Part shown: positions 23,848-28,919 of the stretch, in pieces
How the letters are laid out: each line of letters opens with the position of its first letter
Position numbering within the stretch: position 1 is the stretch's first letter
DNA from: Gammaproteobacteria bacterium
Lineage (GTDB): Bacteria > Pseudomonadota > Gammaproteobacteria > Eutrophobiales > Eutrophobiaceae
Length of the DNA stretch: 64,000 bases
Assembly: GCA_965208655.1 (NCBI GenBank)
Contig: CBDBPJ010000007.1
Span: forward strand, 20,820-84,819
Direction of reading: 5' to 3'
Translations under genes and position numbers: made by a program
The notes under the pieces: model-generated
Seen by the model: the letters and a program-made list of their open reading frames with translations, nothing else
What the model was told of the DNA's origin: nothing
Database searches by the model: none

Positions 23848-25959
23848 TTAGTTGGAAAATCCGGATTTCTTGCGCGCTGTCGGGCTCAATAGTCTTCCGT
23901 CATAATGTGTCAGTTCCGGTAGCGGGTAAGTCTTGTATGCAGCAACCCCACCGCGAATGACCGTGGGAATCGCGTGCTTCACACCTCCCGGTCCGCTAGG
24001 CCATCCACTTGAATAGCGAGGGTCCGGTTTGTACCGGGTTTCGTCTGTGTTTTGATAATGAGGGGGTCCTTCCCAATCAATCCCCGCCCAGGGTGCATAC
24101 CTGTGTTCACCGGTAAGACCCATGCTTGCCATCTCTTCCCGGGAATATCTTCCTCCTTCGGGCGGGATGTCGTATCTGCCGTCAGCAGCCAGGTAACGCC
24201 ATAGCACGTAATCCTTGTAGAGTATCTCCTTGTGTTTTTTCCACCCGAACGTGCGCGCGAGTGCGCGGGATATACTGGTAAATTCGGCCATTACTGCATC
24301 GATTCCTTTTGCGTAGTTCTGCGCATCCATAGCCTGGAACAGCAATTTTCCCAAACCTGTGCTCTGATACCGGGGCTCGACACCGGCCATAAACGCGTAC
24401 ATTAGATTATCCTGGTGCGTGATTGGATCCGGCCCATACAAAAGTTCCTTCGTGCCAAACATGTCGAGCGTACCGCCGAGATGTTCGGCCCATGGGTATT
24501 TGCCCATGACCGTCTCGCCGAATTCCATGCCGCGCGCAATGGCCCTGCCTTCCTTTATCCATGCTGCCCTGTTATCGTCATCCAGTTTTGAGAATTCCTT
24601 TTGATCTTCCGGATCTGTTGCAATATACCCCTCCAGGTACTGGGTGATCACACCTGCCACCTCCCAACCGCCGGAACTGCCTGTCTGGTTTACCAGGATG
24701 CCTATGCTGCATTCGTCATTTTGCACATACTTCCTGGAATCACTTACGAATTCCGAAAAACTCTCCTTTGATAACGGCTGTTTATTCAAACCCCTGGAGA
24801 TTTCAGGGTCCATCAGGGCCGTGGTCAGCGGTTCTACCCCCCCTGAAGTGAAACCTCGTGCCATAACCCGGTCAACAGCCTCCGTGTATTCCGAGTCCCC
24901 GGTCAGCACAAAAGTTTTAAAACGGCGAGCCACATCCTCATCGGAGGATACCTCGCTTAAGCCTCTCATTAGACCAGACTCTATAATTCTTTTCCTGTTT
25001 TCTGCATAACCGAAATGACTGTGGTTGAGCCTGGCGTATAACTCATTCATTTCCGCTACTGAGACATCCCGGCGGCGCGCCATGGCTTCCCGTCTCGTTA
25101 TCCCGGATTCTCTCGGCAGAATACTGTTACCTGCGGAGGCAGATCTCCCGCGTCCAACACTCAGCAGACCTCTCAGCGCTATTGACCTCGGCAGCACCAT
25201 CTGCACCGGGCCGTTGTCCCGGGCCGGCGCAACGCCCGTTGTTCCACCCGGGGCCCGGTCCAACAGGTCCGCTACCGGCTTCCCTGCAGCCACTTTCCCT
25301 GCCACCAGGTCAGCATGCCGCTCATAAGCATCGCCTGCCTCACCCACGTCTCCCCCAAGCTGACCCGGCCCGACATTCTGCACGTAGTGCACCGCTTCAT
25401 GGGCCGCATCAGTCAGCGTCGGCGCTGCGGCAAAGGCTACATCCCCACCCTTGTGATAGGCGCTTGACCCGAAGCTGGAATTAGCCGCACGGGCGGCCGC
25501 GTCGGTATGGGCCCGCAGGCTGCTGATATCATGATGGCCGAAGGCCTGCTGGATCTGCTCCCGGTACGGGTAGTCTTGCGCCGGCCCCTGGAATCCTGTG
25601 TTCGCTACGGCATGGACAGCCGCGCAGTTCCGCTCATGCAGGCGCATCTGCTGCGCGGCGAATTGCAATGTTGCCCTGTTGCCGCACTGTTGCTGGGCCA
25701 TATTGATGGCAGCGCTGAATTGCAGCGGCGTTTCTCCACCCCGGATGCCGTCGGAGATCCTGTGCAGGGCTGCACCGGCGGTAAAAATATCCCGGCTTGA
25801 GCCGTCCGGACATGCCGTGTTGCCGCTGATGGGAATGCTTTGCTCTGAATCCTGTACCGGTTTGTTTTGCAGGTAGCTTCCTGTTTTTGATACTTGTTCT
25901 GCTGAAGCGAAAGTATGCCGTGAATAAATCATTGCGCCTTGTCTCCTGGCCGTCCCCAT
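23848..25959 (-). CDS. DUF4157-family multidomain protein: N-terminal leader motif, a DUF4157 HExxH domain, and a GNAT-like acetyltransferase-like domain
   Basis: 703 aa. The leader is AQQQCGNRATLQFAAQQMRL, like the LQRTIGNQAVQRLL opening of DUF4157 proteins. The DUF4157 core is FGHHDISSLRAHTD...AYHKGGDVAFA...AAHEAVHYVQ. A GNAT motif-A-like stretch is VEPRYQSTGLGKLLFQAM. Confidence 0.6.
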   Translation of the reverse strand: MGTARRQGAMIYSRHTFASAEQVSKTGSYLQNKPVQDSEQSIPISGNTACPDGSSRDIFTAGAALHRISDGIRGGETPLQFSAAINMAQQQCGNRATLQFAAQQMRLHERNCAAVHAVANTGFQGPAQDYPYREQIQQAFGHHDISSLRAHTDAAARAANSSFGSSAYHKGGDVAFAAAPTLTDAAHEAVHYVQNVGPGQLGGDVGEAGDAYERHADLVAGKVAAGKPVADLLDRAPGGTTGVAPARDNGPVQMVLPRSIALRGLLSVGRGRSASAGNSILPRESGITRREAMARRRDVSVAEMNELYARLNHSHFGYAENRKRIIESGLMRGLSEVSSDEDVARRFKTFVLTGDSEYTEAVDRVMARGFTSGGVEPLTTALMDPEISRGLNKQPLSKESFSEFVSDSRKYVQNDECSIGILVNQTGSSGGWEVAGVITQYLEGYIATDPEDQKEFSKLDDDNRAAWIKEGRAIARGMEFGETVMGKYPWAEHLGGTLDMFGTKELLYGPDPITHQDNLMYAFMAGVEPRYQSTGLGKLLFQAMDAQNYAKGIDAVMAEFTSISRALARTFGWKKHKEILYKDYVLWRYLAADGRYDIPPEGGRYSREEMASMGLTGEHRYAPWAGIDWEGPPHYQNTDETRYKPDPRYSSGWPSGPGGVKHAIPTVIRGGVAAYKTYPLPELTHYDGRLLSPTARKKSGFSN
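25639..25773. repeat. ~135 bp DNA repeat (copy A) encoding the shared N-terminal module. Copy B lies at 28688-28823 at ~90% identity.
   Basis: Direct alignment of caggcgcatctgctgcgc...gatcctgtgcagggctgc in the two genes. Confidence 0.7.

Positions 25960-28919: not shown

Follow-up and report, generated by a model that had tools for sequence, protein, structure and literature searches.

The extracellular contractile injection systems (eCIS), phage-tail-like machines, have toxins that are marked by the DUF4157 domain, now named eCIS_core (PF13699), of all such markers the most widespread (PMC8213781; PMC11297309). Of the known eCIS toxins, 88% are encoded within 10 genes of an eCIS operon (PMC11297309). 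In the AlgoCIS of Algoriphagus machipongonensis, the cargo proteins Cgo1 and Cgo2, both of which fill the tube lumen, have an N-terminal region and DUF4157 in common but carry different C-terminal domains (PMC8894135). Loading of AlgoCIS cargo needs the N-terminal region, DUF4157 and the C-terminal domain being dispensable in this one engineered system (bioRxiv 10.64898/2026.05.27.728243). Here we describe a locus in a 64,000-nucleotide stretch from a Gammaproteobacteria bacterium of the Eutrophobiaceae (assembly GCA_965208655.1, contig CBDBPJ010000007.1, positions 20,820 to 84,819; hereafter “the window”), where two tandem minus-strand genes located between valS and cysE, downstream of valS, and here called g1 and g2, have in common a short segment of similar DNA. 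We propose, and consider likely, that g1 and g2 are a pair of eCIS cargo (effector) genes whose N-terminal modules were homogenised by gene conversion, and that the core domain was then deleted from g2.

By architecture, the window pair and its relatives resemble Cgo1 and Cgo2, as adjacent cargo genes with a common N-terminal region plus DUF4157 and different C-termini. Moreover, the operon that precedes the cargo genes in some relatives encodes, as in AlgoCIS, a WHD-AAA ATPase and has two cap genes of the Pvc16_N type, and the engineered AlgoCIS cargo without DUF4157, which still loads, parallels the natural deletion in g2. Unlike Cgo1 and Cgo2, the window pair lies beside valS, far from an eCIS operon, and its cargos are one protein with a putative decarboxylase-like domain dependent on pyridoxal phosphate (PLP) and another of no recognised fold.

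Other described systems offer partial likenesses. As far as the accounts of the PVC payloads Pdp1 and Pnf go (Jiang et al. 2022; PMC11495950), the payloads of one machine begin, as here, with a common leader that is about 50 residues long, and this leader is thought to be read by a Pvc15-type AAA ATPase (PMC11495950). Unlike the window genes, PVC payloads lack DUF4157 (bioRxiv 10.64898/2026.05.27.728243), their leaders are unrelated in sequence to those described here, and their genes are operon-linked. Polymorphic toxins such as Rhs and CdiA also join a conserved N-terminal module to unrelated C-termini at a sharp junction motif (PVQM in our case), recombine between module copies and vary in array content from strain to strain. 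A first-pass annotation of this DNA had seen in the repeat the signature of such families, and the module/cargo structure and the strain-variable arrays agree with it. However, polymorphic toxins have immunity genes and promoter-less orphan C-terminal cassettes, and neither exists here: no immunity-type open reading frame (ORF) was found between the genes, where only 83 bp separate g2 from g1, and 110 bp separate g1 from cysE. A classical polymorphic-toxin locus was ruled out on these grounds. The delivery route differs as well, polymorphic toxins being secreted by filaments or shells, while loading into a phage-tail-like tube is what we propose for the window pair.

The repeat and the two genes that carry it

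Positions 25638-25782 (copy A, TAGAALHRISDGIRGGETPLQFSAAINMAQQQCGNRATLQFAAQQMRL) and 28688-28832 (copy B, TAGAALHRISRGIQGGEAPQQVGDAIDMAQQQYGNRATLQLAAQQMRL), both on the minus strand, align over 145 ungapped base pairs with 88.97% identity (129/145; MAFFT and blastn). The blastn E value is 3.3e-48 when the two genes are compared and 7e-48 when the whole window is searched. The segments of about 135 bp and 90% identity described beforehand (25639-25773 and 28688-28823) were thus correct to about 10 bp. No third copy occurs in the window, either at the DNA level or when the encoded peptide is searched with tblastn. The first-pass annotation had named a dispersed repeat with no relation to the coding frame as the outcome that would speak against its proposal, and this is not what was found. 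Each copy is part of a minus-strand ORF, in its coding frame and close to its 5′ end: copy A covers codons 60-108 of the 703-codon ORF of g1, and copy B codons 30-78 of g2. The encoded peptide reads TAGAALHRIS.GI.GGE.P.Q...AI.MAQQQ.GNRATLQ.AAQQMRL. A second, weaker collinear match of 70 bp at 74% (blastn; also the second blastp segment) joins the linkers that follow in each protein (25198-25267 in g1, 28623-28692 in g2), so that the gene bodies around the repeat, reported as unrelated, are so in their cargo parts and not in their linkers. The 145-bp repeat is part of a shared N-terminal module, and encodes the helical leader of about 48 residues of two neighbouring cargo (toxin-like) genes; a leader common to two effector-type genes with unrelated C-terminal cargo had indeed been anticipated.

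The g1 gene (23848-25932, minus strand) encodes 694 amino acids from an ATG at 25932, the longest ORF starting at 25959 and covering 703 codons. The former is probably the true start, since an AGGAG precedes this ATG and the orthologues are called from the equivalent codon, with 694 amino acids. The protein has a disordered N-terminus, the helical leader, eCIS_core (25264-25632, minus strand), a linker ending in PVQM (25192-25263, minus strand, LLDRAPGGTTGVAPARDNGPVQMV) that forms the module/cargo boundary and contains most of the weaker match to g2, and a cargo of 447 amino acids with a weak GNAT-like motif. PF13699 is found in g1 with an E value of 2.4e-7, its score of 31.3 bits lying above the cut-off of 22, and the zincin-type HExxH motif within the domain reads HEAVH. 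The g2 gene (26043-28919, minus strand) encodes 958 amino acids, where the leader is joined straight to the linker (28620-28687, minus strand, LDRGPGATTHGARARNDAPVQMT) and followed by a cargo of about 860 residues. The Pfam scan gave no match of PF13699 in g2, so that the description of both genes as members of the DUF4157 family fits only g1; because its orthologues, 90-93% identical, carry PF13699, g2 is to be classed with the DUF4157 cargos by descent only.

An AlphaFold2 model of residues 1-260 of g1, built from 16 aligned sequences, has a mean predicted local distance difference test score (pLDDT) of 71. Residues 1-54 are disordered, and residues 58-121 form four helices (pLDDT 72-88), the first three of which (58-73, 78-92 and 94-108; pLDDT 77-88) are encoded by the repeat. 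A block from about residue 121 to 235, which contains eCIS_core, is modelled mostly at pLDDT 88-98, with lower values around 190-210, and residues 240-260 make up the disordered linker with PVQM at its end. A Foldseek comparison of this N-terminal model with the PDB gave a best E value of 4.6, so that none of the solved structures is similar to it.

Loss of the core domain from g2

One homologue of g2, P0001, has 1083 amino acids, is 90-93% identical to g2 and carries PF13699, as do P0003-P0006; these g2 orthologues with DUF4157 come from related uncultured Gammaproteobacteria. In the alignment, g2 lacks exactly one block of about 125 residues between QQMRL and LLDR. At the DNA level, nucleotides 1-242 of g2 correspond to nucleotides 1-242 of the orthologue, and 228-2877 to 603-3252, which amounts to an in-frame deletion of 375 bp, or 125 codons, equivalent to the eCIS_core region of g1. 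The junction lies at 28688-28692 (minus strand) and coincides with a CCTGC microhomology, the orthologue sequences ...GCGCCTGC/ATGACGGGGG and ...AGACCTGC/TGGACCGGGG having become ...GCGCCTGCTGGACCGGGG in g2.

When g1 is compared with the intact orthologue of g2, the similarity extends over 585 bp at 87.5%, and the two paralogues of the 5.27-Mb metagenomic contig that encodes P0001 (locus L001) match over the same 585 bp. The similarity was therefore not confined by recombination to the leader-encoding segment, as had been supposed, because the 145-bp island and the 70-bp linker match are the remnant of a 585-bp module after the deletion; in intact relatives, siblings share 585-590 bp over the leader, the DUF4157 core and the linker. 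The isolated look of the repeat is due solely to the loss of the adjoining 375 bp in g2, and the locus is of an ordinary kind, carrying a natural domain-deletion variant. In the sequence of events that we propose, a microhomology-mediated deletion would have removed the 125 core codons in frame and fused leader to linker, leaving 145 bp and the weak 70-bp match out of some 585 bp of similarity. The exact proteins of g1 (703 and 694 amino acids) and g2 are present in no other public assembly looked up, and the allele has thus been seen once.

The two parts of g2 have diverged from the orthologue in different ways. The ratio of nonsynonymous to synonymous divergence (dN/dS) is 1.15 in the first 77 codons (21 replacement and 6 silent changes) versus 0.21 in the cargo (Fisher p = 0.001), and g1 shows 0.45-0.5 throughout. 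Within its 48-codon leader, g2 carries 6 unique nucleotide changes and 5 unique amino acid changes, the latter at sites where the other 12 sequences do not vary (PLQFS to PQQVG, LQF to LQL, and C/F to Y). These figures suggest that the leader of the core-less g2 is under relaxed constraint and that the cargo was under purifying selection for most of its divergence.

Homogenisation of sibling modules within genomes

In genomes of five lineages, sibling cargo genes have N-terminal modules that are 87-100% identical within each genome, with an identity tract that ends at PVQM and unrelated cargo in all cases; from one genome to another, divergence of the same pair is much larger. Besides the 145 bp at 89% of the window pair and the 585 bp at 87.5% in L001, these tracts measure 587 bp at 86.9% in L003 (the complete chromosome OZ242265.1, a metagenome-assembled genome or MAG), 199 bp plus 52 bp at 90% and 85% in L008 (ERZ25067879 ctg62902), 590 bp at 99.8% in L009, 683 bp at 100% in L006, 595 bp at 95.3% in L004 (OZ220696.1), and 750 bp at 99.1% in L002. 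L009 and L006 have cargos of both types, arranged as they are in the window, to which they are 79-83% and 64-68% identical in amino acids, respectively; their sibling modules are near-identical within each genome, and about 61-82% identical in amino acids to the g1 module of the window. Conserved synteny and cargo orthology together with homogenised modules indicate gene conversion between resident paralogues, a pattern that fresh acquisition would not give, and on this comparative evidence the sibling modules are evolving in concert. Recombination or gene conversion between paralogues had been suggested for the window, and it is retained here.

The homogenisation was also called recent, which holds only in a relative sense. 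In the clade of the window, L001 and L003, synonymous divergence (dS) is 0.24 between paralogous modules versus 0.07-0.12 between orthologues of these nearest relatives, which makes the last homogenisation in this clade older than the split of the strains. According to our proposal, recurrent gene conversion would keep sibling modules alike over a tract that runs from just upstream of the leader to PVQM, and it would likely be maintained since all cargos of one machine need to be recognised by the same loading apparatus. By analogy with the described systems, the leader itself may be the loading signal that this apparatus reads.

The PVQM junction and recurrent loss of the core

Core-less variants are not limited to g2. 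The g1-type gene of L008 (583 amino acids, identical to P0140) has the leader and the fourth helix followed by the linker, with about 111 codons lost at a different junction. The L008 contig has 2x coverage, its g2-type gene is split into 186 and 902 amino acids, and valS and pepA show frameshifts or fragments; this fragmentation is probably sequencing error, and the core-less g1-type allele of this contig is to be taken with caution. Compared with its homologue P0156, P0148 (800 amino acids) is missing residues 102-226, again the core, and in P0157 the leader is joined directly to a PLQLM linker. From these comparisons, the combination of leader and junction without core is taken to have arisen several times, at least three or four (g2 of the window, the L008 g1-type gene, P0148 and P0157). 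The locus and its relatives can be regarded as natural counterparts to the engineered DUF4157-deletion experiment, in the form of repeated in-frame losses of the core with leader and junction retained. The core-less g2 protein may still be loaded, or the gene may be decaying instead.

The motif P-(V/L)-Q-M at the module/cargo boundary (25192-25200 and 28620-28630 in the window, and in all related loci) is strictly conserved, also in the core-less variants. The tracts of within-genome identity stop at this motif. One doubtful idea is that the eCIS_core/DUF4157 zincin might be a processing protease that cuts at P-(V/L)-Q-M and is able to act in trans, which would explain the repeated loss of the core with leader and linker kept, the existence of module-only genes and the end of conversion at PVQM. 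If it were true, the natural allelic series would define leader plus junction as the minimal cis-requirements of an eCIS cargo, and the DUF4157 domain would gain an assigned role.

Linkage to injection systems in relatives and size of the leader family

The order in L001 is lptFG, pepA, holC, valS, the 1083-amino-acid gene (P0001), a gene for 694 amino acids and an acetyltransferase gene, and L003 is alike. The succession valS, g2-type, g1-type and cysE is found in L001, L003 and L009, and the g2-type gene occurs alone in L007. Comparison of strains, as advised by the first-pass annotation, thus reveals a valS-cysE array of one, two or three cargo genes depending on the strain. The orphan cassettes for which it had advised a search did not appear, with no further copy of the repeat or leader in the window and a single locus in the related genomes scanned. 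A third cargo type with a divergent module (leader ...AINA.N...GNRAFLQFVG, and HEAAHGVQQAG) is present at 12709-14370 of L009 and 8066-9808 of L006; its occurrence in only some arrays shows that whole cargo genes are gained or lost both next to valS and at the end of the operon.

In other relatives, cargo genes of this kind follow an eCIS operon. L002 encodes a CIS tape-measure protein, sheath, WHD-AAA ATPase, spike tip and two Pvc16_N genes, and then two eCIS_core genes; L004 has an L002-like eCIS operon followed by genes for 674 and 1011 amino acids, both with PF13699. In L006, the same operon is followed by three cargo genes, two of which are g2-type and g1-type homologues in the order of the window (61% identity to g2 over the whole protein by blastp and 64% in the cargo by tblastn; 62% and 68%, respectively, to g1). 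In the chromosome OZ242265.1, which is the closest complete genome and syntenic with the window, a sheath search placed an eCIS cluster (L005) at 1.27 Mb; the cargo pair is at 3.07 Mb, about 1.8 Mb apart from it. The eCIS operon of L005 ends with a gene for 232 amino acids (17404-18102) that has a leader-like segment and eCIS_core but no cargo, and P0011, P0012 and P0014 are proteins of the same module-only kind. A link of g1 and g2 to a machine of their own genome, in which an eCIS would then exist, is what these relatives lead us to infer. Cargo genes of eCIS can thus sit megabases from the machine, where predictors based on genome neighbourhood would miss them.

The leader belongs to a small family. 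When 1.84 billion representative proteins were searched exhaustively by hidden Markov model (HMM), the two leaders of the window found only 22 hits at E ≤ 1e-3. At least two of these, HYR and RCC1 repeat proteins, are false positives; hit lengths are 91-1643 amino acids, or 91-1295 without these two. Of eight genuine-looking hits scanned with Pfam, six have eCIS_core straight behind the leader and lack any cargo domain that could be recognised, the remaining two having no Pfam match. A scan of 185,579 species-representative genomes for the leader motif gave two loci, both in MAGs of uncultured Gammaproteobacteria. The family was sized by the exhaustive HMM search, since a word-indexed search for homologues of the g1 module yielded only 10 proteins, the obvious P0001 group not among them. 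As far as these searches reach, the leader is a narrow, lineage-specific element, a distribution in keeping with reports that eCIS loading sequences are system-specific (bioRxiv 10.64898/2026.05.27.728243).

Alternative explanations

Several observations weigh against the proposed account. In the group of the window, L001 and L003, the leaders cluster weakly by orthologue (93.8% identity versus 85-90%), which indicates that no conversion has taken place in this clade since the strains split. There are no eCIS genes in the 64-kb window, so that the position expected at the 3′ end of an operon, found in L002, L004 and L006, is not the one seen here. The sheath of the sole eCIS found in OZ242265.1 is just 63% identical to those of the operons with g1- or g2-type cargo, and the leader of its module-only gene is 42% identical to that of g1, which makes the cognate pairing of this eCIS and the cargo pair uncertain. 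The leader of the window genes is predicted to be helical (pLDDT 77-88), whereas the loading region of AlgoCIS cargo is described as disordered, and at their extreme N-termini, which are truly disordered, g1 and g2 do not resemble each other. Finally, the dN/dS of the g2 leader and its loss of invariant residues suggest that it may no longer be functional. The helical segment, the distant machine and the relaxed g2 leader all speak against carrying the AlgoCIS result straight over to these genes.

A single recent tandem duplication followed by replacement of the cargo, with the repeat as its residue and no ongoing conversion, would be a simpler history, and nothing in the window clade demands conversion after the split: the modules are 87-89% identical, their dS of 0.24 exceeds the 0.07-0.12 of the split with L001 and L003, and the leaders side weakly with their orthologues. 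However, one old duplication cannot yield both the 99.8% and 100% within-genome identities of L009 and L006 and the 61-82% amino acid identity of these modules to the window, and other cargo pairs, in L002 and L004, have sharply bounded tracts at 95-99%, which leaves this explanation unlikely. A different reading would make the repeat a functional nucleic-acid element, for example a regulatory RNA, a site of recombination or a repeat dispersed in the genome, whose overlap with the coding sequence is due to chance. The higher nucleotide identity (89%) than amino acid identity (79%), with 12 of the 16 differences at codon positions 1 or 2, points in this direction, but the excess of replacements is accounted for by the relaxation specific to g2. 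Moreover, the same frame is used in both copies, each of them near a gene 5′ end; the peptide is kept at 45-60% amino acid identity in distant homologues, where the DNA is down to 65-74%; the window has no further copy, and in relatives none lies outside genes of this kind; Rfam gave no match in the locus at permissive and gathering thresholds; and the folding energy of both copies is about that of shuffled sequence (z = -0.31 and +0.58). Such an element is hardly credible.

The deletion itself could be questioned as an artefact of assembly or consensus, the real g2 gene being intact, as the allele was seen once among public assemblies and similar sequence in both genes could confuse an assembler. 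Nevertheless, the loss is of exactly 125 codons, in frame and between 5-bp microhomologies, and a collapse of the paralogues would give a g2/g1 chimera rather than a deletion inside g2. Independent core-less alleles (the L008 g1-type gene/P0140, P0148 compared with P0156, and P0157) and the replacements of the g2 leader itself, which are consistent with time spent without the core, also argue for a true event, so that we hold an artefact to be very unlikely. We therefore keep to homogenisation of the modules by gene conversion followed by the loss of the core from g2 as the preferred account. The basic picture remains unchanged by it, as a shared leader is expected in the known effector architecture; the natural DUF4157 deletion, the concerted evolution of the modules and the location far from an operon are points of moderate specialist interest. 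Together, homogenisation and core losses help to define the system-specific part of a cargo, which is useful for the design of loading tags.

The cargos

The C-terminal part of the g2 cargo (26046-27062, minus strand) matches PDB profiles of serine decarboxylase (8jij, E 1.3e-16) and histidine decarboxylase (7erv, E 4e-13), as well as the NCBIfam histidine decarboxylase model (E 3.9e-19; 68.6 bits against a curated cut-off of 305); the match to Pfam PF00282 is weak (E 0.07). A PLP-binding-type S-x-H-K lysine motif, S696-G697-H698-K699, is invariant in the alignment. These about 340 C-terminal residues are putatively a distant homologue of the group II PLP-dependent decarboxylases. An AlphaFold2 model of full-length g2 had a mean pLDDT of 51, too poor for a fold search. 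Chemistry of the PLP-decarboxylase type is not among the eCIS toxin functions listed in two published papers (PMC8213781, PMC11297309), and it would be unusual for an effector, if confirmed. The g1 cargo had no PDB match by profile and no NCBIfam match; a GNAT signal at E 0.1 from the single sequence is a weak lead.

Genomic context of the locus

The window is a piece of ordinary chromosome, with hisS, rodZ, rlmN, suf genes, a cysE-type serine acetyltransferase gene, valS, pepA, lptF/G, pcnB and panBC, and the GC profile shows that g1 and g2 are not compositionally foreign. A scan of 23600-29200 for promoters and terminators gave nothing above expectation. Between the cysE-like gene and a DUF364 gene lie a PIN-domain toxin gene (22204-22602, minus strand) and a PrlF/AbrB-type antitoxin gene (22599-22850, minus strand), a pair that is absent from this position in L001 and L003. 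Finally, a low-GC islet (0.46-0.49) at 14300-19040, absent from the syntenic L001, encodes a DUF2971 protein (14578-15537, minus strand), an Xre/MqsA-like helix-turn-helix protein (15651-15956, minus strand) whose gene overlaps that of a RelE protein (15931-16254, minus strand), an HTH_37 protein (16545-16832, plus strand), a DUF4145 protein (16912-17580, plus strand) and a CopG-type ribbon-helix-helix protein (18584-18823, plus strand). The whole has the look of a small toxin-antitoxin or defence islet that varies between strains.

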